This document shows positions 215 to 49,508 of a DNA stretch of 50,020 nucleotides, one piece after another (position 1 is the stretch's first letter; every line of letters starts with the position of its first letter). The notes under the pieces were generated by a model, which made no database searches, had not been told where the DNA came from, and saw only the letters and a program-made list of their open reading frames with translations. The translations under genes and the position numbers were made by a program. Source of the DNA: a virus (lineage: Duplodnaviria > Caudoviricetes). The DNA lies in the IMG/VR virus record IMGVR_UViG_3300037781_000013, positions 1-50,020 of that record, one strand, 5' to 3'.

Positions 215-215
215 T

Positions 216-230
216 TATAACAATGTTATA
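216..230. promoter_or_regulatory. 15-bp dyad TATAACAATGTTATA (perfect copy)
   Basis: Recurrent palindrome, 11 bp upstream of a -35 box. Confidence 0.8.
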
Positions 231-241
231 AGCCGTTAGGC

Positions 242-269
242 TTGACATTTACTTATTATTCTGTAGAAT
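242..269 (+). promoter_or_regulatory. sigma70 promoter
   Basis: TTGACA-N16-TAGAAT, followed by a GGAGGA RBS and ATG at 295. Confidence 0.75.
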
Positions 270-294
270 GGGAACCCTAGATGGAGGAATTGTT

Positions 295-399
295 ATGAAC
301 TTGCGCGACTTATTCTGGATGACTGTGACAATATTATTTATGATGGTTGTTATGTCTCCTTTCGTTATCGTGGGCATACAATCCACTGTTAATTATTAA
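295..399 (+). CDS. small hydrophobic (membrane) protein, 34 aa
   Basis: GGAGGA RBS; MNLRDLFWMTVTILFMMVVMSPFVIVGIQSTVNY; below the ORF-track cutoff. Confidence 0.6.
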   Translation: MNLRDLFWMTVTILFMMVVMSPFVIVGIQSTVNY

Positions 400-410
400 A
401 CACACGTACA

Positions 411-425
411 TATAACAATGTTATA
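411..425. promoter_or_regulatory. 15-bp dyad TATAACAATGTTATA (perfect copy)
   Basis: Immediately 5' of a GGGAGA RBS. Confidence 0.8.
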
Positions 426-438
426 CGGGAGAATAAAC

Positions 439-780
439 ATGATTGATTGGTATATACTGGATGACAACAACAACGTAGTTAAAGCAGCCACTTACCTAGA
501 AGGAGCTGAATGGCTGGAAAGAAATAGAGACAGGAAGCGTGTAGCGCAAGATGATGTAGTGATTGATGGGCAAACATATTGGGTTAGCACTGTGTTCCTT
601 GGTATTGATCATGGGTATGACAATAATAGTGTGCCTGTAGTATTTGAAACTATGGTTTTTGCGAAGGACAGTGGAGGAAACATAAACTACTCTGAGCTGT
701 ATATGAACAGGTATTCATACTATGATGACGCATTGGCTGGTCATGAGTATGTAGTAAGCAACTTAGAAAGTTTAATTTAA
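439..780 (+). CDS. conserved phage hypothetical protein
   Basis: VSTVFLGIDH...FETMVF motif recalled from many phage proteins; start moved to the ATG at 439 after the RBS. Confidence 0.75.
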   Translation: MIDWYILDDNNNVVKAATYLEGAEWLERNRDRKRVAQDDVVIDGQTYWVSTVFLGIDHGYDNNSVPVVFETMVFAKDSGGNINYSELYMNRYSYYDDALAGHEYVVSNLESLI

Positions 781-782
781 TT

Positions 783-797
783 TATAACATTGTTATA
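783..797. promoter_or_regulatory. 15-bp dyad TATAACATTGTTATA (perfect copy)
   Basis: Abuts an AGGAGA RBS. Confidence 0.8.
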
Positions 798-809
798 AGG
801 AGAAATATT

Positions 810-1223
810 ATGAACGAAGCGATTTTGATTTATTTGTATTTGGTTTTAGGCTCACTCATTGAAGTGATGTTGTTTGCAGGAGTGATTGGAAGTGTTGCAT
901 GGGGCTTCTTGTTCATTGGTTCTGATGGCGACCTAGTGTTTGACCAGACAGAAGAGGGAACAGGCGAATATAAAATGCAGAGAGGTTTAAATCTATTTGG
1001 TAAGCTCTCTATAATCGTGTTGATTACAGGCTCTCTACTTGCTGTACTCTACCCGGATAAAGATGATTTAAAATGGATTATTGGCGGTGCTATTGTATGG
1101 AATGGTGCTGAAACAGCATCACAGATGGAGAGTGTACAACGATTACCAGACAACCTAGTGAATGCAGCTAATCACTTCCTTGAATCTATTGAGGACACAG
1201 GAGATGAAACTACTGAAGAGTAA
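810..1223 (+). CDS. hypothetical membrane protein
   Basis: Two to three hydrophobic segments; RBS. Confidence 0.75.
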   Translation: MNEAILIYLYLVLGSLIEVMLFAGVIGSVAWGFLFIGSDGDLVFDQTEEGTGEYKMQRGLNLFGKLSIIVLITGSLLAVLYPDKDDLKWIIGGAIVWNGAETASQMESVQRLPDNLVNAANHFLESIEDTGDETTEE

Positions 1224-1341
1224 CGACCCTGATTTTAAATTAATATGGTGTGCCACTGGACAGAAGTATTTCTTGTATTACAAAAAGAGATTGTTTAAGG
1301 TGGCATATAAATATTCAGAAGTGAGGCCATACGTAGAATGA
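1204..1341 (+). CDS. small basic hypothetical protein, 45 aa
   Basis: Fills the gap; stop overlaps the next start (ATGA). Confidence 0.55.
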   Translation: MKLLKSNDPDFKLIWCATGQKYFLYYKKRLFKVAYKYSEVRPYVE

Positions 1342-1718
1342 CTAGAATTAATGTACTACCGCCTGAAGTGTTAAGCAGAGAACACTTGATAGCTGAATAC
1401 CATGAACTACCTAGAGTGTTCACTTACGTTGAAAGACACGGCGTTGCTGGCGTTCGTCCAGCAAATTATTGCATGGGTGCAGGGCATGTTAAATTCTTTA
1501 CAAACAAGCTGTTATATTTGCATAACAGATATAGCAGAATATATGAGGAAATGTTATATCGTGGGTATAGTGTGAACAAAGCTACGTACAACAAATGGGA
1601 CGTATACATGCATAAAATAATTGATGATAGCATTGTTCGTCAGGTATGCTGGACACCTAGCCCTTCCGACTGTTATACTAATATGAACAGATTAGTTGAG
1701 AGAGGATACAATGACTGA
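1338..1718 (+). CDS. denV: pyrimidine dimer DNA glycosylase (T4 endonuclease V-like)
   Basis: MTRIN N-terminus, HLIAEYHELPRVF and GHVKFF..KL.YL..RY motifs. Confidence 0.9.
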   Translation: MTRINVLPPEVLSREHLIAEYHELPRVFTYVERHGVAGVRPANYCMGAGHVKFFTNKLLYLHNRYSRIYEEMLYRGYSVNKATYNKWDVYMHKIIDDSIVRQVCWTPSPSDCYTNMNRLVERGYND

Positions 1719-2139
1719 GTTTAAAGTGGGAGACACTGTTAAGGTTGTTGATGTAGCTCCGATAAATAGAAATTCGTGGCCTACATGGAACAAGCCTATG
1801 GATAAGTACGTTGGAATGAAACTTACAGTAGACAATATTGTGAGGTATGAGGGGGATTTGTGTTACTACTTAAGTAACGGTTGGAATTACCATCCTGACT
1901 GGATTGAACCTGCCAATGCCCAATCTAATAACAATGTTATAACATCCGTTATGCCTACAGAGGGGCAATGCATAGCTATATGGGAATTTGCAGGGCACAG
2001 GTGGAGCAAGAACTTAAAGATAGAAGATGGGGTTATGTATGTCTATGATGATGTGCATGACGATGAGTGGGTAGAGGTAGACTGGAAACCCAACGAACAT
2101 CAAACAAACGTAATGTATATACTTGAAAATGAAACGTAG
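1711..2139 (+). CDS. hypothetical protein with an N-terminal FKVGDTV (KOW/SH3-like) motif
   Basis: ORF with AGAGGA RBS; contains a one-mismatch dyad copy at 1927-1941. Confidence 0.7.
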   Translation: MTEFKVGDTVKVVDVAPINRNSWPTWNKPMDKYVGMKLTVDNIVRYEGDLCYYLSNGWNYHPDWIEPANAQSNNNVITSVMPTEGQCIAIWEFAGHRWSKNLKIEDGVMYVYDDVHDDEWVEVDWKPNEHQTNVMYILENET

Positions 2140-2219
2140 AAAAGACAGGCGCATAAACATACGTGGAATTGCTACATTTGGTAGCAAGAAACATAAACCA
2201 AAGAAAGGTAAAGGAAGCT

Positions 2220-2609
2220 ATGACCGCAAGAACTGGAAGAATAGCACCTCATGAACATAGAGAAGTGCAGCTTGTACTCGGTGGACTAAAACCCTTAGCT
2301 GTTATAGAGAAACATAAAGACCCTATAGGCTATTCAATAGCTACAGCACTTTCTAAAGTAGGGCTTCTAAGTGTTTGTTTTATAAGGGAAAGTAGGGATA
2401 GTCCAGAGGGAGAGGTGGTGGTAGTTAGAAGGCATTGTGAGCATTTAATAGAGCAATACAATAGCTTGCAATCTGACGGAGTTAAGCGTCTTGGTATTAA
2501 GGAATATCATAGGCAAATGGGAAAACTTTTTGGGTATTCTGATGAAGACATTGAGAAGTTTATTCAGAATAATATTGAGTGTAATTGTTCAAAATGTAGA
2601 GGAAATTAA
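2220..2609 (+). CDS. conserved hypothetical protein
   Basis: PHE.RE..L.L.G.KPLA ... G.LFGY..EDI.KF pattern; C-terminal CxCxxC. Confidence 0.7.
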   Translation: MTARTGRIAPHEHREVQLVLGGLKPLAVIEKHKDPIGYSIATALSKVGLLSVCFIRESRDSPEGEVVVVRRHCEHLIEQYNSLQSDGVKRLGIKEYHRQMGKLFGYSDEDIEKFIQNNIECNCSKCRGN

Positions 2610-2611
2610 TT

Positions 2612-2929
2612 ATGAATGAAGAAGAAAGAAACATCTTGCGAGAAGTAGAAGATAGAAGGTGGAACACTGCCAGCAGAATGCATACCAGCGGATTCTGGTC
2701 AGGCTTGGGGATAATGGCTTCATTGTCTCTCCTGTTAAATAATGAGCCTTGGACATTCTTCTTCTGGTTTGGTGTTGTGTTCCTTCCTGTTCTGTCTTTT
2801 ATGGCATACAAGAACTGGAAGCTATCCAAGTCTTTCGATGATTTGGAGACACAAGGTATGCAACACTTGGCAGTGATGTCTCGTATTCTATCCGAAGCAC
2901 TGGAAGAGGTTGACAAATCTAAAGATTAG
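2612..2929 (+). CDS. hypothetical membrane protein
   Basis: Two hydrophobic segments; GAGGA RBS. Confidence 0.7.
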   Translation: MNEEERNILREVEDRRWNTASRMHTSGFWSGLGIMASLSLLLNNEPWTFFFWFGVVFLPVLSFMAYKNWKLSKSFDDLETQGMQHLAVMSRILSEALEEVDKSKD

Positions 2930-2937
2930 TGTATAAT
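2910..2937 (+). promoter_or_regulatory. sigma70 promoter
   Basis: Perfect TTGACA-N16-TATAAT. Confidence 0.8.
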
Positions 2938-3055
2938 AAGAATTGTATAATATACTATATACATATATTTATATAATAAATATATAATACATATTATATA
3001 TTATATATAATTCTAAATACATTATAACATTGTTATAAATACTATATACATAATA
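2938..3055. other. near-pure A/T tract containing a dyad copy (3023-3037)
   Basis: About 120 bp almost devoid of G/C. Confidence 0.8.
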
Positions 3056-3066
3056 GGAGATATATT

Positions 3067-3321
3067 ATGAATAAACTTAAATTCTACTACACCAATGGTA
3101 AAACATACAACGCATCCAGAGTGACCAGTCATATTGTAACGCCTCACTCAGTTGATTACATTCGTGATGTTGTGGTGGATAATATCCGCAAGAGTGAGTT
3201 TATATCTGTACCACTCACAGACTTGGCTTGTCTGAAAGTGAAGGACTCAAAAGATCATTCCGACACTTTTCACCGCATCAAGCCTAGTCATCCAGTGTGT
3301 GTATCTATTAACAAAGGGTAG
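3067..3321 (+). CDS. hypothetical protein
   Basis: AGGAGA RBS. Confidence 0.7.
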   Translation: MNKLKFYYTNGKTYNASRVTSHIVTPHSVDYIRDVVVDNIRKSEFISVPLTDLACLKVKDSKDHSDTFHRIKPSHPVCVSINKG

Positions 3322-3323
3322 TC

Positions 3324-3626
3324 ATGAACACCTTCTATATGCTGTATCTAGGAGAGTATCCTATATCCCCAACTCTCTCTGAAGAGATGCAGGAAGTGTT
3401 GTTTGATTTGGGTTATGGTTGGGGGTCGGCGAGAAAGACTTCATATGAGGACTTAGTGGCTAAACAAGTCACCACTGTAGTAGTTAATGATGGATATAAG
3501 AGACTAACCCATTCAACTAGAGGGTTCAGACGATTTTCTGATGGACAAAGGCCAGTGGATTATCGTCCGGGTGATGAAGTAGTGTATATAAACGTGGAGG
3601 AGATATGGGACACATTGAATACATAA
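3324..3626 (+). CDS. hypothetical protein
   Basis: ORF in operon; QEVLFDLGYGW resembles ILLNFGYTW in 11298-11534. Confidence 0.7.
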   Translation: MNTFYMLYLGEYPISPTLSEEMQEVLFDLGYGWGSARKTSYEDLVAKQVTTVVVNDGYKRLTHSTRGFRRFSDGQRPVDYRPGDEVVYINVEEIWDTLNT

Positions 3627-3817
3627 TGCTAATTGTGTCAGGCATCATAGCCTATCTAATAGGCAAGAAAGCTGGCCGTAAGGCTGGCGAACTAGATGCT
3701 GCCAAGAAGCATGAAGACGATATAGCTGCACTCAACGATCAATTCTTTGGTATTCTCCGAGAGGGAGCCAAGGAAGACGGAGAGGTGGTTATTAAAATGA
3801 CCCTTAAGGAGAAATAA
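3605..3817 (+). CDS. small membrane-anchored protein
   Basis: GGAGGAG RBS; N-terminal transmembrane segment. Confidence 0.7.
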   Translation: MGHIEYIMLIVSGIIAYLIGKKAGRKAGELDAAKKHEDDIAALNDQFFGILREGAKEDGEVVIKMTLKEK

Positions 3818-3818
3818 C

Positions 3819-3983
3819 ATGAGAAGTTTAATATTTATATTGTCTATGTTCTGTTTTATAGGTGCGACACATTTAGGATATTTTCCAGAAGATGTGTTTG
3901 AAGCCGAGTCTGTTGGTCTAGCTTTATTCTTAGGGTTGTGGGTTATTATGGACTTTATAGCCGTTTCAAAAGGTAAGTTATAA
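3819..3983 (+). CDS. small membrane protein, 54 aa
   Basis: AGGAG RBS; two hydrophobic segments; stop codon lies inside the dyad at 3979-3993. Confidence 0.6.
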   Translation: MRSLIFILSMFCFIGATHLGYFPEDVFEAESVGLALFLGLWVIMDFIAVSKGKL

Positions 3984-3993
3984 CAATGTTATA
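3979..3993. promoter_or_regulatory. 15-bp dyad TATAACAATGTTATA (perfect copy)
   Basis: Supplies the TAA stop of the upstream ORF and the ATG of the downstream ORF. Confidence 0.8.
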
Positions 3994-4096
3994 TTTTACT
4001 TATTTCTTCTCAGGCTTCCTAACAGCTATAATGGTGATGGTGGGGATTGCCTGTACATACGGCCCTAGTGACGATGATGAGGACGATGAGGAATAA
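3986..4096 (+). CDS. small membrane protein with acidic tail, 36 aa
   Basis: MLYFTYFFSGFLTAIMVMVGIACTYGPSDDDEDDEE. Confidence 0.5.
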   Translation: MLYFTYFFSGFLTAIMVMVGIACTYGPSDDDEDDEE

Positions 4097-4100
4097 AAAG

Positions 4101-4280
4101 ATGATAGCATTTAAGATCATACTTAAGCTGACAGGCTTGACAATCCTCTTCTGGTGTGTAATAATGTTCACATCCTATCTAGTAGGAATACCGGAATACT
4201 GGATGGACTTTTTCAATGGCTTTGTTACATGTTACATCTGGTTTAAAACAAAACTATCGGAGGAACTCTGGAATGAGTAG
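4101..4280 (+). CDS. small membrane protein
   Basis: GAGGA RBS; hydrophobic. Confidence 0.6.
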   Translation: MIAFKIILKLTGLTILFWCVIMFTSYLVGIPEYWMDFFNGFVTCYIWFKTKLSEELWNE

Positions 4281-4458
4281 CGATACAATAGAAACATTCA
4301 TTATTGAAGGCGAAGAGATAGCAGCACATAGCATGTATGCTGCCAAGATGGCTCACCGTGTCATTAAACAGGAACGGGAACGTAAGCAAAAAGAAAAGGC
4401 TGACCGCCTTGAACGTGACGCTTACTTGAAACGTACACAGCCGTACAACAACGGCTAA
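4273..4458 (+). CDS. hypothetical protein
   Basis: GGAGGA RBS; charged C-terminal helix. Confidence 0.6.
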   Translation: MSSDTIETFIIEGEEIAAHSMYAAKMAHRVIKQERERKQKEKADRLERDAYLKRTQPYNNG

Positions 4459-4460
4459 CA

Positions 4461-4475
4461 TATAACATTGTTATA
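4461..4475. promoter_or_regulatory. 15-bp dyad TATAACATTGTTATA (perfect copy)
   Basis: Abuts the GAGGAG RBS of the vWA gene. Confidence 0.8.
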
Positions 4476-4487
4476 AGAGGAGATGAT

Positions 4488-6176
4488 ATGAATAGTAGCT
4501 GGATGCTCCAGTCACATAGACGACTCATCAATGCTTTGGTAGATGGTAATGGTTTACGCTACAGAGAAGTTGATTGGGACGAATATGGCGAGGTGAAAGA
4601 GCGACATGGTGAGGTGGTGATGCCCCACTTTGATCCAACAATGACAGAGGAAGAGCTGGACAATTGGATGGATATGCTCATCACAAAAACTTACCAACGT
4701 AACAAAAACAACAGGAGTGATTTGGATTACATACCTGAAGGTGATGGATTGAAAAGTATTCATTCCCTTGTGTGTGATCAGAACACAAAACTAAGCCAAC
4801 ACCGCCGCCTCATAGGTGCAGATGAATATTCTGCCAGAGCCGCTGAGAAGCGATATGAGAGCGTTTTGGGTGACACTAATATCTCCCCACAGGCTAGGGC
4901 CTTAAATGCGCTTGACGCGTCTGTGAGAGCCTCTAACAGCATGGTTAATGGTGGGGTTGCGGGTAGTTTGGTGAATTCTCTGGATGGAGAGGCCAAAACT
5001 CTGTATGATAAACTAATGGACGGTGTGTTCGACGAGATGGTGGAACAACGTGAATCAGGGATTGACAATTTCAATCTGGCTAACAAGATAGCCTCAATTT
5101 TAAATGTTCAACAAGAGGAGCCGCCACAAGGCGGAGAAGGTGAAAGTGATGCAGACCAATCAGGTGATGGAGAAGATCAGCAAGGTTCACAAGAAAAGCA
5201 ACGTGGAGATGATGCATCTGCACAGGCTCAAGAGGCAGAAGGGGAAGGAGAGGAAGAACAGGATGGAGACAGTGAGAGCCAAAAGATCAAGCCTATGACA
5301 GACTTGGGGGATGGGTATTCCAGCTATGAAGTGGGAATAAACAAAGAGATGGACTTCTCTGCGTACGACCTATCCAAGCAAATAATCCCTTGGGACGTAC
5401 ATGTAATTAGTACAGCGGGGCATGAACAGTCTGGAAGTGGTGGCCGATACCAGAGCATACGCAAGGTGATGCCACAAGCCCTGTCTGCCAAGGTGAGAAA
5501 CATTCTCAAGGTGATGAGTCAGGCCCGATATGTAGGAGGGCATAAGAGAGGGAAGATTAATAAACGTGTAATTTCCTCAGTTGTTAGTGGGAATGAACGT
5601 ATATTCAGACAGAAAGAAGTTAAGGACGTACTGGACACCTCTGTTCTCCTAGTAGTGGATAGCTCAGGCAGTATGCATGGCTCTCGCTACACACATGCTT
5701 GTGCCGCAGCAGCATCTATGGTGGAATGTTTGAAGAAACTTAACATCAACCATGCAGTGTATGGCTTTAGTACAGGACACGCAGGGTGTGTTGTGTATGA
5801 GCACAAGAAATTCAATGAATCAGGAGTTGACAGCGACACCATAATCCGTAGAATGACTAGTCATAAGGTGGATATGAATGGCAATGCTGACGCTGAAGCA
5901 TTGATATACACTGTGGACAAGCTGATTAAGCAGAAACAGAAACGTAAAATCATGATTGTATTATCAGATGGACAACCAGCAGGAGGTAGCAATCCCCATG
6001 AATTTCTAAAACTAACTTGCAGAGACATTGAGAGAAATAGCCCTTGTGAACTATATGGGGTAGGCATTGAGTCAGACTGTGTTCAACATTTCTACTCAAA
6101 CAACAAGGTGCTTAACAAGCCTTCCCAACTTGAAGCAACACTACTTAATTTATTTAAAGACGCTATAATCAAATAG
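4488..6176 (+). CDS. CobT-like von Willebrand factor A domain protein
   Basis: MIDAS motif DSSGSM, LSDGQP, acidic linker; adjacent to a MoxR-type AAA+ gene. Confidence 0.85.
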   Translation: MNSSWMLQSHRRLINALVDGNGLRYREVDWDEYGEVKERHGEVVMPHFDPTMTEEELDNWMDMLITKTYQRNKNNRSDLDYIPEGDGLKSIHSLVCDQNTKLSQHRRLIGADEYSARAAEKRYESVLGDTNISPQARALNALDASVRASNSMVNGGVAGSLVNSLDGEAKTLYDKLMDGVFDEMVEQRESGIDNFNLANKIASILNVQQEEPPQGGEGESDADQSGDGEDQQGSQEKQRGDDASAQAQEAEGEGEEEQDGDSESQKIKPMTDLGDGYSSYEVGINKEMDFSAYDLSKQIIPWDVHVISTAGHEQSGSGGRYQSIRKVMPQALSAKVRNILKVMSQARYVGGHKRGKINKRVISSVVSGNERIFRQKEVKDVLDTSVLLVVDSSGSMHGSRYTHACAAAASMVECLKKLNINHAVYGFSTGHAGCVVYEHKKFNESGVDSDTIIRRMTSHKVDMNGNADAEALIYTVDKLIKQKQKRKIMIVLSDGQPAGGSNPHEFLKLTCRDIERNSPCELYGVGIESDCVQHFYSNNKVLNKPSQLEATLLNLFKDAIIK

Positions 6177-6185
6177 GAGATTATT

Positions 6186-7265
6186 ATGACTGACACTAAA
6201 GACAAACTACGCAGCGAACTTGAAGCTCGACTAGGTAAGGCACAGCCTGAACAGAAAGAGCCAGAGAAGCCTGTTGTATTCTTCAACCACAAAGCTCGAC
6301 CCAAGAAGGGCAGCCGGAGCTATAAGGATATTATTGGTGAAGATCATCCAGCGGGTGACTTCTACTTCCATCACACCTATCGTGAGGCAGATGATTGGCC
6401 TGAGAATATCCGGGGCATGATTCCAGAGGTGGACAAAAACCACAAGTTTGACCATGACTATGCCCTGCTTATCCTTATGGGCATTGAGTTCAACAAGACG
6501 GTGTTTGCCTATGGCCCTCCCGGTACTGGTAAGACAACTACGCCTGAACAGATATGTGCTCGTATCAATCGCCCCTTTGCCTTCATTGGTGGTATGGGCG
6601 GCACTGAGCCAAGTGACTACGTTGGTATGCCTTGGGTACATGAGAAGAACGGTGCTTCTGTTATGGAATGGAAGGATGCTATGGCTTCATTCTGTGTACG
6701 TAATGGTGTATACCTTCTGTATGATGAGCCATTCAAAGCCTCAGCACAGACAAACATGTGCTTCCAGTCTTTGCTGGATGACCGTAAGACATTGAAGCTG
6801 TACGGACACCCTGACCCTGTAGAGGGCAACCTCAAGGCTCACAAGGACTTCCGTATATGTCTTGCCGACAACGTGCGTGGCTTTGGTGACAATATGGACA
6901 AGTATGCTGCTGAGATACAAGATCAGAGTACTCTCAATAGGTGTGCATACAAAGTGCATGTTGACTATGTGCCTGAAGACGTAGAGATGCAAATTCTCAA
7001 GGCTAAGTACCCGGATGCAACGGACGATTTGGTTAAATGCATTGTGTCTCTTGCCAATCTGCTCCGTAACGCATGGAAGAAGGGAGAAGTTGAGGCTCCG
7101 TATTCTATACGGGATACACAGGAGTTTGTTGAGGCTGCTCTGTTCCAGAAAGACATCGGACGAGCCTTCACTCAAACGTACTATGGAGCCATCCAAGAGG
7201 ACGAGGAACGTAACGCAGTGGAGAAATGCTTCAAGATGGCATTTGGTAGCAAAGCCTCTCTATAG
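6186..7265 (+). CDS. CobS/MoxR-family AAA+ ATPase
   Basis: Walker A GPPGTGKT, Walker B LLYDE, sensor-1 N, STLNR arginine finger, SIRD sensor-2. Confidence 0.9.
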   Translation: MTDTKDKLRSELEARLGKAQPEQKEPEKPVVFFNHKARPKKGSRSYKDIIGEDHPAGDFYFHHTYREADDWPENIRGMIPEVDKNHKFDHDYALLILMGIEFNKTVFAYGPPGTGKTTTPEQICARINRPFAFIGGMGGTEPSDYVGMPWVHEKNGASVMEWKDAMASFCVRNGVYLLYDEPFKASAQTNMCFQSLLDDRKTLKLYGHPDPVEGNLKAHKDFRICLADNVRGFGDNMDKYAAEIQDQSTLNRCAYKVHVDYVPEDVEMQILKAKYPDATDDLVKCIVSLANLLRNAWKKGEVEAPYSIRDTQEFVEAALFQKDIGRAFTQTYYGAIQEDEERNAVEKCFKMAFGSKASL

Positions 7266-7275
7266 GGGCTTTGTT
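7251..7275 (+). terminator. putative intrinsic terminator or hairpin at the end of the AAA+ gene
   Basis: AAAGCCTCT-CTAT-AGGGGCTTT followed by GTT; weak U-tract. Confidence 0.5.
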
Positions 7276-7289
7276 ATAACATTGTTATA
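7275..7289. promoter_or_regulatory. 15-bp dyad TATAACATTGTTATA (perfect copy)
   Basis: Abuts an AGGAGA RBS. Confidence 0.8.
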
Positions 7290-7300
7290 AGGAGAGCGTT

Positions 7301-7522
7301 ATGGAATCTGTTTTAATTGTGTTGTCAAACTCTGAGCTACAAGACGACCCCACTAGAATTGAAATCAGTGCGAACTGTGTTGAGATGGTAGCTGATGGTG
7401 GGCATAGCTATTGTATATTTGATAACGATAGCTTAGAGGCGTGGGAAGAGATAGAGTTGAGACAAAATAAATGGATTTATAATAACAATTCATACGAGTA
7501 TTTTGATATATTATCAAACTAA
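7301..7522 (+). CDS. hypothetical protein
   Basis: RBS, ORF. Confidence 0.65.
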   Translation: MESVLIVLSNSELQDDPTRIEISANCVEMVADGGHSYCIFDNDSLEAWEEIELRQNKWIYNNNSYEYFDILSN

Positions 7523-7540
7523 ACTAAAGAGGAATCTATT

Positions 7541-7945
7541 ATGAATATTGAAGAATTTACAGAACAAATTGAAGAAGTGAAAGGTGAGCTTAAGAAGGCT
7601 CTGTTTGACAGCGAAGGTGAGAGCAGCCATTCAGCAGGAGTGCATGTTGCAGCCCTTACGGAGATGCGTATGGAAGTGTGCTGGTGTATGGCACGACATT
7701 CCTTTGAGGAAGAAGGGAACACCAATCCCACTGAAGAAGAGCTACGTGGCCGAGCCAATCAAATGATTATGGAGCTTGTTCAAGGAGAAGTGTTGTCCAT
7801 TCTTGCAGCTGAGTCAGGGCTTGAGCCTGAAGAGTTTATCAGCAAGCTCTCTGGTGAAGAACCTAAAAAGAAAACAGACGTTAAGGACTTGCTGAAAGAC
7901 AAGAAAGGCAACCTGTACGAAGTGGACTTCACTAAGAAACACTAA
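7541..7945 (+). CDS. acidic hypothetical protein
   Basis: GAGGA RBS. Confidence 0.75.
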   Translation: MNIEEFTEQIEEVKGELKKALFDSEGESSHSAGVHVAALTEMRMEVCWCMARHSFEEEGNTNPTEEELRGRANQMIMELVQGEVLSILAAESGLEPEEFISKLSGEEPKKKTDVKDLLKDKKGNLYEVDFTKKH

Positions 7946-8075
7946 TGAAATTCACATACCAAATTAAAGGTGATTTGGTTATCATTTGTAAAGAAGACAG
8001 AGGCAGTAGAATTTATATGTCTATTCCTTATGATAACCTCCACCTACTGGAAACTCTGTTAGAGGAGATTAAGAA

Positions 8076-8360
8076 ATGACTACGCATACATTTACAGCAG
8101 AGGTGGAGATAGGCGGAAGCACTATCCAATGTGATGTTGAGATAGATGAGACTGATCTTAAGGATTGGTATAGCTCCAATTGCGACTCTGACGATATACT
8201 TGAGTTGGTAGATAACTACCTAACAGCTGAAGAGATTGTTTTACGTGAGCTAGAAGCTGTTGACCCCGGAAATAGTCTTACAGCATTGGCTTCTCTATTA
8301 GGCTTAAGTGAGGAGGACGTTATACATTTGGTGAATGAACACCTAGACTTGGAGCTATAG
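8076..8360 (+). CDS. highly acidic hypothetical protein
   Basis: GAGGAG RBS; very D/E-rich. Confidence 0.7.
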   Translation: MTTHTFTAEVEIGGSTIQCDVEIDETDLKDWYSSNCDSDDILELVDNYLTAEEIVLRELEAVDPGNSLTALASLLGLSEEDVIHLVNEHLDLEL

Positions 8361-8362
8361 CT

Positions 8363-8599
8363 ATGGAAATTGTAGGAACTGATGACAAGCATATAGGTGT
8401 GTTGCTAACACAGAATGAGTTTATATATTTAGCCGCAGCTATGGGAATGTCCAGTGATGACGAGGTGGAGAGATTTCTAAATAATAAGTGCGTAGACAGT
8501 GAGAGGGCGAGGGATGTAGTTAAGCCAAGTAGAGCAGGCTTTGAACTATACCAGTCTTTCTCGTCCCCACTAAAAAGCAATGGTATATTTAAGGAGTAG
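8363..8599 (+). CDS. hypothetical protein, paralog family A (1/3)
   Basis: MEIVG...IGVLLTQNEF shared N-terminus. Confidence 0.75.
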   Translation: MEIVGTDDKHIGVLLTQNEFIYLAAAMGMSSDDEVERFLNNKCVDSERARDVVKPSRAGFELYQSFSSPLKSNGIFKE

Positions 8600-8601
8600 C
8601 T

Positions 8602-8832
8602 ATGGAAATTATATGTGATGATATAAAAGACGGTATTGGGTTGATTGTAACTAAAGAAGAGCTTATGATGATATGTGACACTGTAGGCAACACAAGTATT
8701 GATGGCCGTAGGAAAAGTTTGATGACGGTTTACAATAATTTGAGTGAGGAATATCTACACGATGTAGCTGTAACAGGTGATCATGTATATCTTGATCTCC
8801 ATGTCTTCCTTAATGAACATGGGGTTAGATAG
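8602..8832 (+). CDS. hypothetical protein, paralog family A (2/3)
   Basis: MEIIC...IGLIVTKEEL. Confidence 0.75.
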   Translation: MEIICDDIKDGIGLIVTKEELMMICDTVGNTSIDGRRKSLMTVYNNLSEEYLHDVAVTGDHVYLDLHVFLNEHGVR

Positions 8833-8834
8833 TT

Positions 8835-9107
8835 ATGGAAATAATAGGGCACAATAAAGAAGGTGACACCGCTGTAATTCTCACTAAGGAAGAGTTAATA
8901 ACTATTGCAGCGTTTATGAACTTTAATTCCTACGATGACGTTGCTGATGTTGTCACTAGGTATCTTGAACAGGAAGACACTCAAAGTTTCTTAATAGATT
9001 ATAAATACGCAGGTGAGGACGCTAAGTTATTGTGTGATGGGAAGTCAGTGAGTCCAGATCACACGCTGTTTGATTCTATAACTACGTATATTAAAGGCAA
9101 CAATTAA
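8835..9107 (+). CDS. hypothetical protein, paralog family A (3/3)
   Basis: MEIIG...TAVILTKEEL. Confidence 0.75.
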   Translation: MEIIGHNKEGDTAVILTKEELITIAAFMNFNSYDDVADVVTRYLEQEDTQSFLIDYKYAGEDAKLLCDGKSVSPDHTLFDSITTYIKGNN

Positions 9108-9937
9108 TGAATGAAAGGTTTTCCTACAAAGAGATGAAAGAACTCCTAGCTGGACATTCCCTCCAAATAGGGGACACTATAAACATATTTCATTGTAAGA
9201 AGGGCCATAACAATGACAGGCTGTTCATTACAAAGAAAGATGATTGTGTTCTCTTCTTTTGTCATCATTGTGGGAAGAAGGGCAAGCTCAACACCACTAG
9301 AGCTGCCTATAAGAAACGAACAGGACAACTAACTAATACTAAGAATAAACCAAGAATGTCCACCGCTATGCCAGCAGATGGTATTCTAGAACCTCAGAAA
9401 TGGCCCGTAGAAGCTATGAGATGGACTAGCAGGGCTGGTATGTCCCTCACAGACATAGAAGAAGCAGGAATGCAATACAGTCCTTCCTTCAATCGTGTCA
9501 TTGTGCCTGTCTCCTTTGAAGGACAATACAATGGATGGGTGGGACGTAGAGTAGGGAATGATGATAGCATTCCTAAATATTTAGCTGCCTATGTAGACAG
9601 AGGTAAGAACATATATGTATGTAGAACTAACACTGAGAAAGAGATTATATTAGTGGAGGACATACTGAGTGCTAGGAAGTTAGCCAAGGCTGGCTATAAT
9701 TCTGTAGCATTACTAGGCACTTCACTCTCAGATGAGATGTTTTATTATTTGACTGTTAGATATAATTCGTTTATAATATGGCTGGATAATGACAATGCTC
9801 AAGTGAAACTAAATCAATTGAAATTAATGAACAAGCTGTCTGTTGTTGGTAATGTGAGAATTGTCAAGAGTGATAAAGACCCGAAGGAGTACAGCTTGAA
9901 AGAGATAGAGGAGATATTAAATGCAAATACCATATAG
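9107..9937 (+). CDS. DNA primase (zinc-binding domain plus TOPRIM)
   Basis: HC...CHHCG zinc motif; LVEDILSA, ALLGT, WLDND, KDPK TOPRIM motifs. Confidence 0.85.
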   Translation: MNERFSYKEMKELLAGHSLQIGDTINIFHCKKGHNNDRLFITKKDDCVLFFCHHCGKKGKLNTTRAAYKKRTGQLTNTKNKPRMSTAMPADGILEPQKWPVEAMRWTSRAGMSLTDIEEAGMQYSPSFNRVIVPVSFEGQYNGWVGRRVGNDDSIPKYLAAYVDRGKNIYVCRTNTEKEIILVEDILSARKLAKAGYNSVALLGTSLSDEMFYYLTVRYNSFIIWLDNDNAQVKLNQLKLMNKLSVVGNVRIVKSDKDPKEYSLKEIEEILNANTI

Positions 9938-10109
9938 AGATTTGGATAACAAGAATAGTGATTACTCTATACATGTTAATTTTTATGAAGAGACTACAAG
10001 AGTTGATATATTTGTTATAGATGGTGATGGAGCCAAGCACGTAACCTTTAGGAACAAAAACCATTTATACGAATGGATGCTACATGTAGTGGAAGAATTG
10101 GAGAAATAA
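9921..10109 (+). CDS. hypothetical protein, paralog family B
   Basis: C-terminal FRNKNHLYEWML motif. Confidence 0.7.
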   Translation: MQIPYRDLDNKNSDYSIHVNFYEETTRVDIFVIDGDGAKHVTFRNKNHLYEWMLHVVEELEK

Positions 10110-10111
10110 AT

Positions 10112-10348
10112 ATGGATACATTCACGTATGACATAGTTACTGATAAGTATGACGAAACAACGGATATAATTATCGTAAACTGTGATGAGCAGGGTGGTGA
10201 AGTAGCTACTGTAAGGCTGTACCATGACGACAATAGGGTAGCTTTAATATCACGTAATAGAGATGTTGTTGATTCCAGAGAATCATTATATTGCTTGATG
10301 GAGTTGATGATAAGAGCTATAGATGAGGTGGATGATGTTAGAGTATAA
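10112..10348 (+). CDS. hypothetical protein, family B-like
   Basis: GGAG RBS; ESLYCLMEL C-terminal helix. Confidence 0.7.
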   Translation: MDTFTYDIVTDKYDETTDIIIVNCDEQGGEVATVRLYHDDNRVALISRNRDVVDSRESLYCLMELMIRAIDEVDDVRV

Positions 10349-10562
10349 TATTAAGAGCTATTCGGTACAGTTTAATAATTCGCATAGCCACAGCATTGAA
10401 TTAACTGTAGGAGATATTTATGGAGAACCTAAAGAGATTGTATTACACGTTAAGGATAGGACAGATCACGCTATATACAGATTTAAAAATGAAGAAGAGC
10501 TATATACAATGATGCAACTAATACTAGATTTTAGAGAGGGTAGATTGAATGAAAGTGACTAG
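10335..10562 (+). CDS. hypothetical protein, paralog family B
   Basis: HAIYRFKNEEELYTMM. Confidence 0.7.
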   Translation: MLEYNIKSYSVQFNNSHSHSIELTVGDIYGEPKEIVLHVKDRTDHAIYRFKNEEELYTMMQLILDFREGRLNESD

Positions 10563-10764
10563 GAGAGGTGGAGGTATATATCAAGCTGAATTGTATAATG
10601 GAACTAAGGTGAGTGTTATCCATGCTAAATCACTAGGCATCATCACTCTGTCCGTACAAGACAAAGAAGCGCACGCTATAGCACACTTCAAAGAGACGGA
10701 ACATCTATACCAATTTATGCTAGAAGCATTGGAGACTGTAGAGGAGAAAGAGAATGAAAGTTGA
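10549..10764 (+). CDS. hypothetical protein, paralog family B
   Basis: HAIAHFKETEHLYQFML. Confidence 0.7.
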   Translation: MKVTRRGGGIYQAELYNGTKVSVIHAKSLGIITLSVQDKEAHAIAHFKETEHLYQFMLEALETVEEKENES

Positions 10765-11032
10765 TATGAGGAGAGTTACTAAATCAAAGCCTAAGAAGGT
10801 GTTTAGGGATAAGTTTGGTGATTGCTATGAAGTGGTGGTGATGTGTAATGGCAAGCAAGCAGCTGATGTAGTTTTGACACATATACACACCAATCCTATA
10901 GTGTGTGTAATAACTACCCCTCCGGCCACGGGTGTTGGTTGTGAAACAGGTGCTATTGAATACATGTATGCTGTCCTCCTCCGAATATCCGAAGCTGTAG
11001 AAGAGCTTGGTGAATTAGCAAAGACGTTATAA
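10754..11032 (+). CDS. hypothetical protein, family B-like
   Basis: EYMYAVLLRISEAVEEL; stop codon lies in the dyad. Confidence 0.65.
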   Translation: MKVDMRRVTKSKPKKVFRDKFGDCYEVVVMCNGKQAADVVLTHIHTNPIVCVITTPPATGVGCETGAIEYMYAVLLRISEAVEELGELAKTL

Positions 11033-11042
11033 CATTGTTATA
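11028..11042. promoter_or_regulatory. 15-bp dyad TATAACATTGTTATA (perfect copy)
   Basis: Abuts a GGAGA RBS. Confidence 0.8.
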
Positions 11043-11053
11043 GGAGACTGGAT

Positions 11054-11311
11054 ATGATTGGTGTACAAAGAAGTAAACAACTTAACAACGGCTCCAGTGG
11101 ACAGACATTGGAACGTATTGACATCTTTACATCTAAAGGCAGACGAGCAGCTGTTATAACAAATGGGAACAGTGCAATGAGTGGTGTTACACAGAGCGTA
11201 GCCCTAACAACACATTTCATAGATGATGAAGAAGACTTCAGGATGGTGATGGAAGTGGTAATTGATGAAACAATAAAACACATGAGAGGGGAAGACAATG
11301 TATCAAGTTAG
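11054..11311 (+). CDS. hypothetical protein
   Basis: RBS, ORF; possible distant family B member. Confidence 0.65.
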   Translation: MIGVQRSKQLNNGSSGQTLERIDIFTSKGRRAAVITNGNSAMSGVTQSVALTTHFIDDEEDFRMVMEVVIDETIKHMRGEDNVSS

Positions 11312-11534
11312 AACTCCTACACCAGAGGTGTATGAAGAGGTAATTAAAATCTTATTGAACTTCGGGTATACATGGATGGCAGGGCAGACAGAGATTTTAT
11401 ACACTGAGACTTTTTACGAAGACGATGTGTGGGGTGTTTTGGTACGTGACGACTCATTGATGTTCCAAAGAGTATTAGCTAATGAACCTATAAATGATGT
11501 AGATATTGTAAACATATTTGAAGGAGAACAATAA
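11298..11534 (+). CDS. hypothetical protein
   Basis: GAGGGG RBS. Confidence 0.65.
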   Translation: MYQVRTPTPEVYEEVIKILLNFGYTWMAGQTEILYTETFYEDDVWGVLVRDDSLMFQRVLANEPINDVDIVNIFEGEQ

Positions 11535-11537
11535 CAT

Positions 11538-12794
11538 ATGAGCTTAGACCTACTATCCATTCTTTCAACTAAAGAAGCGTACGAGAGATATAATGGATTT
11601 TTAAACAAAGACATTCTATCAGCAGAGACACAAATTATTGCTGATGATTTAAAAGCCTACTATGAGGAGACAGGAGAACAAGAAGTAGATTGGGAACAAT
11701 TTGAAGAGTGGTTTAAGTATGCCAAGCATAGCGGATGGGACAGGACAAAGCACCAAGCATTCAGTGTTATATTTGAAGCCCTGTCTACACATACACCATC
11801 TAAAGTGCAGGAAGCTATTGTTGAGAGCTTTGTACTAAGAGATTACTACCAAGAGATTGCAGACGTAGCTCTACGTGGTGCTGAAGGACAAGCTGTAAGC
11901 ATGGAGAAAATCACAGAGCTTATAGAGAGCTGCAATCATAAGCTGGATAGAGTAAGTAAGCTGGACAGTTTCTTTGTTACAGACGATATTCAGGAACTTG
12001 TAGCTGACGTAGAGGGAGGCTACTCATGGCGTATGTCCTGTCTTAACAGGAGCATTGGTAGGCTACGTAGTGGTAAGCTGGTGTGCTTTGCTGCACGTCC
12101 TAATGTGGGCAAGACAACATGGCTAGCCAGTGAGATGACACACATGGCAGAGCAGATAGAAGATGATGAATGTATCCTGTGGTTTAACAATGAGGAGAGT
12201 GGCAGTGATGTTAAGCTGCGTCTCATACAAGCAGCTACAGGATGCACTGGTGCATACATTGAGGAGAATCCTGTTAATGCTATGAACAACTACCGGATGG
12301 CTATTGGTAATGTAGGAAAGATTAAGATATTGGATAAGGCAGACATATCAACAAGAGATGTTGAGGAAATTGTCAAGCGATATAAGCCTAAAATAATTGT
12401 ATTCGATCAGCTACATAAAGTGCATGGCTTTGAGAAGAGCAGCAGCACAGACACAGCTAGGCTTGGAAACATATACCAATGGGCTAGGGAAATAGCTAAG
12501 ACGTATGCTCCTGTTGTCAGTGTGCATCAAGTGAAGACAGAAGGAGAAGGGGTTGAATATCTAACTCCAGACATGCTATACCTATCTGGTACAGTGATAC
12601 AGTCGGAAGTAGATGGCCTCATACTGATGGGACGCAATCACATTGCAGGACAGAACAACAGGAGGTTTATCGCTATTGGTAAAGTGAAGGGTGCTTATGG
12701 TAAGGAAGTGAATCCAGATGAACGTGAAGGGCAGTATGAGGTGGAAATACTGCCTGACACGGCACAATTTAATGAGGAGGAACATAACAGATGA
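11538..12794 (+). CDS. replicative DNA helicase (SF4/DnaB-like)
   Basis: Walker A AARPNVGKTT, NNEE, IIVFDQL Walker B, VHQ. Confidence 0.9.
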   Translation: MSLDLLSILSTKEAYERYNGFLNKDILSAETQIIADDLKAYYEETGEQEVDWEQFEEWFKYAKHSGWDRTKHQAFSVIFEALSTHTPSKVQEAIVESFVLRDYYQEIADVALRGAEGQAVSMEKITELIESCNHKLDRVSKLDSFFVTDDIQELVADVEGGYSWRMSCLNRSIGRLRSGKLVCFAARPNVGKTTWLASEMTHMAEQIEDDECILWFNNEESGSDVKLRLIQAATGCTGAYIEENPVNAMNNYRMAIGNVGKIKILDKADISTRDVEEIVKRYKPKIIVFDQLHKVHGFEKSSSTDTARLGNIYQWAREIAKTYAPVVSVHQVKTEGEGVEYLTPDMLYLSGTVIQSEVDGLILMGRNHIAGQNNRRFIAIGKVKGAYGKEVNPDEREGQYEVEILPDTAQFNEEEHNR

Positions 12795-14729: not shown

Positions 14730-14737
14730 GAGGTTTT

Positions 14738-15732: not shown

Positions 15733-15734
15733 AC

Positions 15735-16622: not shown

Positions 16623-16632
16623 GGGGTGGAGT

Positions 16633-16773: not shown

Positions 16774-16774
16774 T

Positions 16775-16930: not shown

Positions 16931-16931
16931 T

Positions 16932-24225: not shown

Positions 24226-24231
24226 GAGGCA

Positions 24232-24447: not shown

Positions 24448-24449
24448 AT

Positions 24450-48530: not shown

Positions 48531-48551
48531 ATACTATTCTGTAGACAACTT

Positions 48552-48669
48552 ATGTATTTAATATATTATTTATATAATTATTATATAATATTTTTCTATA
48601 GGAAAAATATAAACATGTATATAAATATATTATAATTAATATATAATTTAATACTTACTATACAATAGT
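48552..48669. other. near-pure A/T tract (leader of the late arm)
   Basis: About 115 bp with very few G/C. Confidence 0.75.
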
Positions 48670-48699
48670 ATTATAACATGTATTCTATCTATCTGTCAA
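48670..48699 (-). promoter_or_regulatory. sigma70 promoter for the late (structural) arm
   Basis: Minus strand TTGACA-N18-TATAAT with extended -10 TGn. Confidence 0.75.
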
Positions 48700-48854
48700 C
48701 AACTATTTCCAATATTTTATTTTATTGCAGAAATTATTTAGTTGCATTAATAACAATAATCAGACAGTTAACCCCCTTCCCTACCCCTTTTCCAGCCTTT
48801 TTGTCCTATATTATTTTTTGTTAGTTACAATTAATTTAGGTTAGCATTATGTTA

Positions 48855-48866
48855 GTGAGTGCTTAC
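48855..48866. promoter_or_regulatory. SlmA-binding-site-like dyad GTGAGTGCTTAC
   Basis: 10/12 match to the E. coli SBS consensus GTGAGTACTCAC. Confidence 0.5.
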
Positions 48867-48947
48867 ATATAATTTAATGGAATAAGTAAGAGTTGCAATA
48901 ATCAACTAACAACATTCACACTCAATACGCCTTATATATTTGCAACA

Positions 48948-48960
48948 TAAGTTGTTGATT
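48948..48960 (-). promoter_or_regulatory. IHF binding site
   Basis: AATCAACAACTTA fits WATCAANNNNTTR exactly. Confidence 0.55.
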
Positions 48961-49165
48961 TTGCTGGGGTTTGTGTATTTATATTAATTGCTCGCTATCG
49001 CTCGCTTTCTTGCTACTATATATAGGCAATACATAATACATGTTTAGTTATATTGAATGGTGTTTTTATTCCTATTTGTTATATGCCTCTCTAGCTTCCT
49101 GTAAGCCGTTCTAAGCGCGTTTTGTGTTTAGTGGTAGGTTGGTATTAGATTAAAATAATTCGACT

Positions 49166-49184
49166 AATGAGAATAATTCTCGCA
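49166..49184. promoter_or_regulatory. Fur-box-like site
   Basis: AATGAGAAT-A-ATTCTCGCA, 7-1-7 TGAGAATnATTCTC. Confidence 0.6.
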
Positions 49185-49187
49185 ATG

Positions 49188-49204
49188 TTGGCATGGCATT
49201 TGCT
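49188..49204 (+). promoter_or_regulatory. sigma54 (-24/-12) site
   Basis: TTGGCATGGCATTTGCT with GG-N10-GC spacing. Confidence 0.55.
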
Positions 49205-49227
49205 ATGCATTCTTGCTCAGTAGTGGC

Positions 49228-49242
49228 TATAACAATGTTATA
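49228..49242. promoter_or_regulatory. 15-bp dyad TATAACAATGTTATA (perfect copy)
   Basis: Upstream of the UP element of the first early promoter. Confidence 0.8.
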
Positions 49243-49273
49243 AGGAATTAATAAAAATAATTTAAAAAAGTGT

Positions 49274-49301
49274 TTGACACCACCTTTTAGATGTGCATAA
49301 T
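49274..49301 (+). promoter_or_regulatory. strong sigma70 early promoter
   Basis: A/T-rich UP element, TTGACA-N16-CATAAT. Confidence 0.75.
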
Positions 49302-49493
49302 GACTAGCCATAGAGCTATGGAAGTGTACTGCAACTTCCCGGAGAAGGACTCAATAGCTCGCTGACCGAAATGCCAGCCGCACCCGATAGGCGTAAAGCG
49401 ATACACACTTACTTATGACTTAGCTATAAATATTCAACAAAGGGCTGTTAGATTGACAGTCCTTGATTGAGTGTTTATCCTGACACTCTCGCT

Positions 49494-49508
49494 TATAACA
49501 ATGTTATA
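49494..49508. promoter_or_regulatory. 15-bp dyad TATAACAATGTTATA (perfect copy)
   Basis: Directly 5' of the terminator. Confidence 0.8.

Follow-up and report, generated by a model that had tools for sequence, protein, structure and literature searches.

The stretch of DNA analysed here (the window; 50,020 bp) is a full virus record of IMG/VR (IMGVR_UViG_3300037781_000013) and contains a 15-bp palindrome, TATAACAWTGTTATA, which is referred to as the dyad in the following. The dyad occurs in 12 exact copies in the window, and none of 100 dinucleotide-preserving shuffles gave any. As judged from the sequence, it is a real, strongly selected and operator-like element of a kind that is known but poorly understood. 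The preferred interpretation, to which about an even chance is given, is that of a dispersed DNA operator by which a dimeric protein would gate early and middle transcription, the structural operon being left free. Unusual features are the identity of the site in unrelated phages that have no shared regulator, a spacing variant in a sister lineage and the lack of a recognisable binder in the window. T7-like podoviruses without an RNA polymerase of their own (VpV262/ICP2/Zobellviridae type) are common in water, and we know of no description of the timing of gene expression in these phages. With one 17-bp site placed at promoters and module boundaries, the expression programme would become accessible in a compact way and, moreover, pull-down of the regulator would have a ready-made target. 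The identical sites in unrelated phages together with the spacing variant of the sister lineage represent a natural comparative series, which could help to explain dispersed phage palindromes that have been unexplained since those of the Cluster O phages; furthermore, the dyads also mark points of gene-cassette exchange. Literature searches, of which the one on palindromes and Zobellviridae was too large to be exhaustive, found no relevant paper with the exact motif.

Allowing up to two mismatches resulted in 16 matches compared to 0.23 expected, the largest count in a shuffle being 3. The four additional copies (1927, 15254, 25966 and 30038) carry one mismatch each, copies with two mismatches do not occur, and only 3 matches with three mismatches are present, all of them AT-only. 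The enrichment reported in a preliminary description of the window, i.e., 12 perfect and four one-mismatch copies at the positions given below, is thereby confirmed. The ends of the window overlap by 138 bp (1-138 = 49883-50020); no copy lies within this terminal overlap and the count is therefore not inflated, and due to the overlap the copies 49228, 49494, 216 and 411 form one continuous control region. As far as its sequence tells, the window is a complete 50-kb podovirus genome of the ICP2/VpV262 type; its large terminase shares 60% identity with the counterpart in Vibrio phage ICP2 (Zobellviridae). PHROG matches assign a T7-like structural module to the minus strand (25.8-48.5 kb), with terminase, portal/adaptor, major head protein, tail proteins and internal virion protein, and an early and replication operon to the plus strand (0.3-25.8 kb), which encodes CobT-like and CobS-like proteins, a primase, a DnaB-like helicase, a family A DNA polymerase in two pieces, an exonuclease, a metallophosphoesterase and a ribonucleotide reductase. 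In PHROG/Pfam scans of 20 large and 65 small open reading frames (ORFs) neither RNA polymerase, sigma-like, integrase or repressor families nor a transposase or RAYT-like gene were seen. Rfam families and tRNAs were not found in the window, and a megablast search of positions 1-12000 against phage records gave no match. The sequencing runs listed for positions 1-8000 comprise three DNA runs of pond metagenomes, one of them perhaps the source, and no RNA run.

The gene calls are our own, made from ORFs and Shine-Dalgarno sequences, and define 95.4% of the genome as coding. Eleven of the 12 exact copies are non-coding, having at most 5 bases within called coding sequences (CDSs), for which only 4.3% of all positions qualify; the binomial probability for at least 10 of 12 non-coding copies is about 1e-12. 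The sole exact copy in coding DNA (22752-22766) is part of the gene for ribonucleotide reductase. Of the four one-mismatch copies, three lie inside genes, i.e., 1927-1941 within ORF 1711-2139, where it encodes NNNVIT, 25966-25980 within the minus-strand ORF 25782-25997 and 30038-30052 within the gene for the 1609-aa internal virion protein, and the fourth (15254-15268) is found 4 nt past the stop at 15249 in a 1-kb insert of the DNA polymerase. The structural operon holds no exact copy.

Two copies are positioned just upstream of -35 boxes, as had been noted before. Copy 49228-49242 lies in a 700-bp non-coding region with divergent late and early promoters on either side and ends 31 nt before the -35 box at 49274, and copy 216-230 (centre A; 1 nt past the stop of an ORF ending at 214) ends 11 nt ahead of the -35 box of the early promoter 242-269. 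Both early promoters are of the sigma70 type, are located on the plus strand (TTGACA-16-CATAAT, 49274-49301; TTGACA-16-TAGAAT, 242-269) and are bracketed by dyads, the first by 49228 and 49494 and the second by 216 and 411, at centre-to-centre distances of 266 bp and 195 bp. Since these spacings are not whole helical turns, no looping is claimed from phasing. Copy 49494-49508 marks the 3' end of a leader of approximately 230 nt and ends 5 nt ahead of a 9-pair hairpin (49514-49534) followed by a T-run, in agreement with the earlier statement that one copy precedes a terminator. For four strong promoters a dyad copy is present approximately 80-190 nt downstream: copy 411 lies at about +135 relative to the start inferred for promoter 242-269, copy 3023-3037 about 80 nt past the perfect consensus promoter TTGACA-16-TATAAT (2910-2937, plus strand) and copy 11028 about 120 nt downstream of a promoter-like site at 10874-10902. 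The perfect consensus promoter TTGACA-18-TATAAT with an upstream TG (48670-48699, minus strand) faces the structural operon and is without a downstream dyad.

As originally described, six copies directly precede a Shine-Dalgarno sequence; they end 10-13 nt before the start codon: 411-425 (GGGAG directly after; 13 nt before ATG 439), 783-797 (2 nt past the stop at 780; AGGAG next; ATG 810), 4461-4475 (2 nt past the stop at 4458; 12 nt before the CobT-like ATG 4488), 7275-7289 (9 nt past the CobS-like stop; 11 nt before ATG 7301), 11028-11042 (11 nt before ATG 11054) and 17694-17708 (54 nt past the stop at 17639; GGAGG next; ATG 17719). Two exact copies overlap the preceding stop codon, i.e., 11028 that of ORF 10754-11032 and 3979-3993 that of ORF 3819-3983. 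Blocks delimited by copies comprise CobT-CobS, the primase, the helicase with the N-terminal piece of the polymerase and the C-terminal polymerase block.

The dyad in other phages

A scan of IMG/VR revealed the exact dyad in multiple copies on several contigs. The first of these, the distant relative G004 (43.4 kb, 36% G+C), has replication proteins approximately 35% identical to those of the window and carries 5 exact and 8 one-mismatch dyads just before ribosome-binding sites or start codons, including those of two structural genes. A second podovirus group, group A (G005, L007, L048, L059, L074, L078, L082 and L119; 42% G+C), encodes a ribonucleotide reductase 65% identical to that of the window, different early genes and a T7-type primase-helicase. 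Group A contains up to 7 exact copies in 18.6 kb and pairs of dyads spaced 33 bp from centre to centre, and one copy is placed 7 nt upstream of a TTGACT-17-TAAGAT promoter. Group B (G001-G003; 30-32% G+C) is unrelated and pelagiphage-like and possesses an integrase, and its capsid protein shares approximately 43% identity with the capsids of Pelagibacter phage HTVC106P and Methylophilales phage Venkman. In group B a dyad directly follows TTGACA and a second copy is found 3 bp further on, a pair that has the classic look of operators placed over a promoter. As a separate observation, group B has in one region (G001 23386-24497 and its equivalents in G002 and G003) an exact dyad approximately 55 nt upstream of a 346-aa ORF, which resembles a tyrosine recombinase by eye only, and the conserved stretch 'gttcttgaccaaaccagaacattca' adjoins this dyad; the region may be an attachment-site region.

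A sister lineage (L274, L275 and L276; terminase 48% identical) carries 8-9 copies of TGATAACNGTTATCA, which shares the ATAAC/GTTAT core with the dyad, the spacer being 1 bp and not 3 bp long, and is located from a few to 30 nt upstream of the ribosome-binding sites of early genes (e.g., L276 988-4903). A sigma70 scan of the early region of this lineage gave 16 sites compared to 15.6 expected from shuffles. In L276, roughly 4 kb (about 5400-9400) separate the early genes from the terminase, and on the early-gene strand of this stretch only a holin-like ORF (7740-8117) is convincing. The dyad of the window type was absent from ICP2, MEP402 and Venkman as well as from all 52 loci related by their large terminase (TerL), many of which are partial, and 49 of these 52, again many of them partial, had no dyad of either type. 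Venkman (L124) contains 12 copies of a palindrome TGTTT-AAACA, comprising the 12-mers AGCGTTTAAACA and CATGTTTAAACA with 6 copies each, which looks like a dispersed dyad of its own. A 76-nt double-dyad query against phage records returned chance-level matches only (34-39 bits).

Group A offers three sets of orthologous sites. In these, the 15-mer is unchanged in all aligned sequences and the flanks have diverged; in two of the three sets the flanking T and A are also kept. One of the conserved sites is located inside a 243-aa ORF, where neighbouring third codon positions vary. This bears on an alternative in which the dyad would be a selfish or recombinogenic repeat, moving from one gene boundary to another and acting mainly as a crossover point of cassettes, with no regulatory binder at all. 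Several findings fit such a repeat. Compared to L082, L119 contains an insert of approximately 270 bp, on both sides of which lies a 50-bp double-dyad unit that L082 has only once, and L082 differs from G005 by a gene-sized non-homologous stretch with a dyad on one side and a double dyad on the other, so that non-homologous genes are dyad-bounded on both sides. Several edges of homology blocks start exactly at a dyad, others end about 130 bp away. Moreover, the identical dyad is present in phage lineages without common early genes, some Bacteroidales metagenome-assembled genomes (MAGs) contain multiple copies of this palindrome, often where two genes converge, and repeat-mediated indels of this type are described for Cluster O phages. 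However, orthologous copies remain unchanged despite diverged flanks, even at synonymous positions inside a gene, and this conservation indicates selection on the sequence rather than recent spread. In addition, decayed copies are lacking (none with two mismatches, and the 3 with three mismatches AT-only), no transposase or RAYT-like gene was seen, and mosaic joints at gene boundaries are found in any phage. A purely selfish or recombinogenic repeat is thus judged distinctly unlikely. The preliminary description had considered the dyad as a recombination anchor flanking exchangeable gene cassettes. Indels and gene swaps bounded by dyads do exist in the relatives; since any dispersed repeat gives the same pattern, as in Cluster O phages, recombination is read as a by-product.

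An element of DNA or of RNA

For an analysis of the flanks, 46 exact sites were pooled without redundancy from the window and from seven related sources; 24 of these sites could be oriented by the downstream gene. The flanks are symmetric, with a T at -1 in 20 of 24 and an A at +15 in 21 of 24 oriented sites, and the unit is therefore a 17-bp dyad, T-TATAACA-W-TGTTATA-A. None of the upstream positions exceeds 0.41 bits in the oriented sites. The central base is not oriented by strand, being an A in 15 sites and a T in 9 relative to the direction of the gene. Folded as RNA, the three Shine-Dalgarno-adjacent copies analysed yield hairpins of -2.5 to -4.7 kcal/mol with z values of -0.4 to -1.3, no better than shuffled sequences, and are followed by AGGAG and not by the U-run that would be expected for a stable hairpin or an intrinsic terminator. 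Furthermore, copy 49228 is probably not transcribed, because it lies between divergent consensus promoters and no ORF of at least 50 aa is present in 48531-49149, which makes a role in RNA unlikely for this copy. Together with the unchanged orthologous sites, these observations favour a symmetric element that acts at the level of DNA and is under purifying selection.

In the mechanism proposed, a dimeric sequence-specific protein would bind the double-stranded 17-mer T-TATAACA-W-TGTTATA-A at the two leftmost early promoters and at the module boundaries of the plus-strand early and replication operon. Occupancy of these sites would block or loop early and middle transcription segment by segment, and the structural operon, which is served by a separate consensus promoter and lacks exact copies, would not be affected. 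The binder could be encoded by the phage and have a fold that was not recognised, or it could be a repressor of the host, and recombination between copies would shuffle gene cassettes in relatives as a side effect. The data show that the dyad is enriched, non-randomly placed and symmetric and that purifying selection acts on its DNA; binding by a protein and the regulatory outcome are what we infer here from the symmetry, the lack of strand orientation, the probably untranscribed copy and the operator-like placement in a further phage group and in bacteria. A site for a dimeric DNA-binding protein was also among the possibilities named at the outset and is the one best supported; use as a parS2-like partition site, named together with it, gained no support. 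The dyad differs from the parS2 consensus of Vibrio chromosome II at 2 of 6 specified bases per half-site, and a ParB-like family was not among the PHROG/Pfam families listed, no search aimed at ParB having been made.

Several observations weigh against this operator interpretation. Seven copies are located 5' of a ribosome-binding site, six of them 10-13 nt from the start codon and the seventh (3023) 29 nt before ATG 3067, and the dyad at 17694 hugs its Shine-Dalgarno sequence despite 54 nt of free spacer upstream; such adjacency to ribosome-binding sites would also fit a role in RNA or at a transcription start. Moreover, a suitable protein did not emerge. HTH-clan (helix-turn-helix) Pfam families were not matched by any of the 65 small ORFs of the window at E<=0.01, a search of ten chosen ORFs at E<=10 gave no HTH-clan match except NirdL-like_HTH with E 0.16, and six-frame searches of the window for FUR, TetR_N and HTH_3 found none. 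Atlas look-ups of the ORFs 17719-18075 and 3067-3321 gave no DNA-binding lead, the top feature scores being 0.88 and 0.87 at a bar of 0.9. Finally, tblastn, phmmer and jackhmmer searches identified no small protein common to all dyad-bearing lineages, which is surprising if the identical 17-mer is recognised by a single phage protein everywhere.

Another possibility is that the dyad is a middle promoter without a -35 box, the left half of which, TATAAC, would be used as a -10-like hexamer by a host RNA polymerase that a phage factor has re-programmed. In this case, transcripts would start near dyad position 13 and messages would begin at the ribosome-binding site, which suits the six window dyads that directly precede a Shine-Dalgarno sequence, 10-13 nt from the start codon. 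The model also suits two copies of G004 located 0 and 6 nt before an ATG without a Shine-Dalgarno sequence, as expected for near-leaderless messages. Furthermore, copies mark the starts of modules (CobT/CobS, primase, helicase with polymerase) in the way that T7 promoters do, and the sister lineage has one dyad ahead of each of its 8-9 early genes. However, a promoter needs no perfect palindrome, the centre of the dyad is not oriented with transcription, and a conserved upstream element is missing. The hexamers themselves are at variance with a sigma70 extended -10 element: the right half gives TATAAG (6), TATAGG (2), TATACG (2), TATAAA and TATATT, so that the final T, a base important in -10 elements, is absent from the right-half hexamer in 11 of 12 exact copies and from the left-half hexamer TATAAC in all 12. 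In addition, consensus sigma70 promoters already serve the operon, copies are also found before a terminator (49494) and inside genes (22752 and the conserved group A site), and the PHROG/Pfam scans saw no sigma-like or RNA polymerase gene. A promoter function of this kind is therefore considered unlikely.

Alternatively, the dyad may act in the transcript as a short hairpin 5' of the ribosome-binding site, being the target of a translational regulator or a signal for processing or stability. Next to the seven copies just 5' of a ribosome-binding site, this is suggested by one G004 copy located between AAAGG and the ATG, where a hairpin could bring both together, and by copy 49494, the hairpin of which adjoins the terminator in a strongly structured leader (z -4.78). 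Several points argue against an RNA element: the hairpin of about -3 kcal/mol is no better than shuffled, the two arms do not covary but are invariant, the loop base has no fixed orientation relative to transcription, copy 49228 is probably not part of any transcript, the copies of group B overlap promoter elements and the window has no Rfam match. We regard an RNA element as very improbable.

Search for a binding protein and sites in bacteria

The negative searches of the 65 small ORFs and of the six translated frames bear out the earlier remark that no cognate regulator is recognisable in the window, and no regulator was found among the 25 of 40 PHROG family matches listed for the small ORFs. 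Apart from replication and structural genes, the only ORFs common to the window and G004 are one of 75 aa, which is membrane-like, and an acidic one of 54 aa. Comparison of the window ORFs with group B (phmmer, jackhmmer) gave no shared small protein, and the sole protein shared by L276 and group B is a holin. Candidate binders are present in two other lineages. G004 encodes a 100-aa protein (31049-31348) matching 24 HTH-clan families (best HTH_23, 24.8 bits). Its gene is located approximately 230 bp from a one-mismatch dyad of the G004 control region and occupies the region corresponding to 48531-49228 of the window, where no ORF is present. A homologue of this protein was not found in the window, the best tblastn match (E 0.15) lying in a charged helix and being judged spurious, and no close relative was found in IMG/VR beyond its own contig. 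In group B, a degenerate dyad overlaps the start codon of a 78-aa HTH_3 gene (G001, L303 and L304). The HTH proteins of G004 and group B are unlike each other and neither has a counterpart in the window. TetR_N was not found in six-frame searches of the window or of G001-G005, and among 81 ORFs of group A scanned with Pfam a single weak match was obtained, to HTH_30 (E 3.4e-4).

In bacteria, a search of species-representative genomes for two dyads within 30 bp resulted in 104 loci. Pairs of dyads occur in promoter regions of TetR-family genes in Herbaspirillum, Sporomusa, Kordiimonas and an uncultured gammaproteobacterium, with distances of 21-28 bp from centre to centre, and in a Bdellovibrionaceae MAG a pair adjoins an XRE gene with an integrase. 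Several repressor families can thus use the palindrome, and the sequence does not by itself name the binder. A TetR protein as general host factor was considered and dropped, the subfamily being found in 1 of 300 genomes of its class. In six Pelagibacteraceae genomes (loci L156, L158, L194, L198, L200 and L203) the exact 15-mer is present in the divergent region between znuA and genes for an ABC transporter, a permease and a FUR-family protein. The znu region of these SAR11 bacteria carries 4-5 alternating heptamers TGTTATA/TATAACA with 1-bp spacers, the phage 15-mer representing the junction, and this chain is probably the SAR11 Zur operator. When 5426 E. coli genomes were searched with this operator by blastn, the only match was an unrelated mobile region, present in 6 of them. 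Whole-genome counts in 5 bacteria gave 1-2 exact dyads each. As an independent observation, the palindrome is extended to GTTATAACAWTGTTATAAC in Bacteroidales/Rikenellaceae MAGs (L135-L214), where it is mostly doubled with a 3-4 bp spacer; single MAGs carry GTTATAACAWTGTTATAAC on many of their contigs, often between genes that converge, and this element looks like a REP-type (repetitive extragenic palindrome) repeat.

These sites give some weight to a variant of the operator interpretation with a different owner of the protein, i.e., that several unrelated phages borrowed the operator of a conserved host repressor, with a Zur/Fur-type protein as candidate. The borrowed site would either tie the early programme to the state of the host or titrate the repressor and thereby derepress the host regulon; if true, phages would sense host state or derepress a host regulon via the operator of a Fur/Zur-type metal regulator. 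This is in line with the identical 15-17-mer being shared by at least three phage lineages (30-42% G+C) that have no small protein in common, with the exact 15-mer in the divergent znuA/znuCB-fur region of six Pelagibacteraceae, the capsids of group B being pelagiphage-like, and with the 1-2 exact copies per bacterial genome versus 12-16 in the phage. Moreover, TGATAACNGTTATCA of the sister lineage is one base per half-site away from the 7-1-7 Fur box. The preliminary description had noted that the half-sites equal those of the gammaproteobacterial Zur box in swapped order. The heptamers are indeed shared with the SAR11 znu operator, which contains the exact 15-mer; the order, however, is opposite, and the canonical TGTTATA-N-TATAACA, in its 7-1-7 or 6-1-6 form, occurs 0 times in six dyad-bearing phage genomes. 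In SAR11 the order found in the phages arises only as the junction of two canonical boxes. Furthermore, the TetR subfamily near dyad pairs is too rare for a general host factor (found in 1 of 300 genomes of its class), and G004 and group B encode HTH proteins of their own near dyads. Overall, a small probability is given to a borrowed host operator.

Known systems and further features of the genome

The closest described analogue appears to be the 17-bp dyad TGTTCGG-N3-CCGAACA of the Cluster O mycobacteriophages, siphoviruses of Mycobacterium, in which 34 invariant copies were reported together with three predicted DNA-binding proteins (Cresawn et al., 2015; PMC4351075). The authors propose dimeric regulators and state that the function is unknown (PMC4351075). 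The two systems share invariant dispersed inverted repeats, many of which lie in short intergenic gaps or near gene starts, an unoriented centre, similar positions across relatives and indels made by recombination. Accordingly, the properties of the Cluster O type, i.e., enrichment, intergenic placement, an unoriented symmetric centre and kept positions with repeat-mediated indels, are all found for the dyad of the window. The geometry differs, being G+C-rich and 7-3-7 in Cluster O compared to 7-1-7 (8-1-8 with the flanks) in the podovirus analysed here, and about one third of the Cluster O copies as described lie in genes, whereas 11 of 12 exact copies are non-coding in the window. Unlike the Cluster O phages, the window has no recognisable DNA-binding protein, and its dyad recurs with identical sequence in unrelated lineages.

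Other systems are less similar. The bound sites of the TetR type share geometry with the dyad, tetO having a 7-1-7 arrangement with a CA-N-TG core, and the same 15-bp palindrome is paired at TetR-family genes of four unrelated bacteria, where it is local with 1-2 copies per genome; it was found in this setting only at these four bacterial loci, TetR_N being absent from the window and from G001-G005. The conserved inverted repeats (CIRs) of the Streptomyces phage phiC31, a temperate phage with a known repressor gene, are bound by the phage repressor and resemble the dyad as inverted repeats of approximately 17 bp with many intergenic sites for one repressor. Like the CIRs, stoperators, known from L5, are functional analogues. 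Stoperators are asymmetric and oriented with transcription and belong to temperate phages with known repressor and integrase. In contrast, the dyad is perfectly palindromic and its centre is unoriented, and the PHROG/Pfam scans revealed neither a repressor nor an integrase. For the R4 stoperator system of a temperate actinophage (PMC10276819), the likeness to the dyad consists in the reuse of one site at an early promoter and at many intergenic places, where elongating RNA polymerase would be blocked by the bound protein.

With respect to further features of the genome, other strong rightward sigma70-type sites are present at 4137, 5827, 9749 and 10874, and sites with 11-12 of 12 matches in positions 1-20000 number six on the plus strand and none on the minus strand. 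The leader that ends with dyad 49494 (49308-49545, plus strand; approximately 230 nt) contains no ORF and extends from the first early promoter to the strong terminator. It folds much better than shuffled sequences, with a minimum free energy of -77.4 kcal/mol and a z value of -4.78, has no Rfam match and is a candidate early non-coding RNA. The 700-bp stretch 48531-49228 between the divergent late and early promoters is AT-rich, and no ORF of at least 50 aa lies within 48531-49149. The family A DNA polymerase is split into the ORFs 13560-14729 and 15735-16622 (plus strand), and the insert of approximately 1 kb between them comprises four small ORFs and the one-mismatch dyad 15254. In ICP2, the polymerase is annotated as joined across an HNH gene, and MEP402 likewise has two polymerase CDSs. 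Finally, three tandem arrays of small acidic ORFs, which appear paralogue-like by eye, are located on the plus strand at 8363-9107, 10112-11032 and 12791-13570; they comprise three ORFs starting with MEI, four of approximately 71-92 aa and three starting with MKL..C..GDLV.

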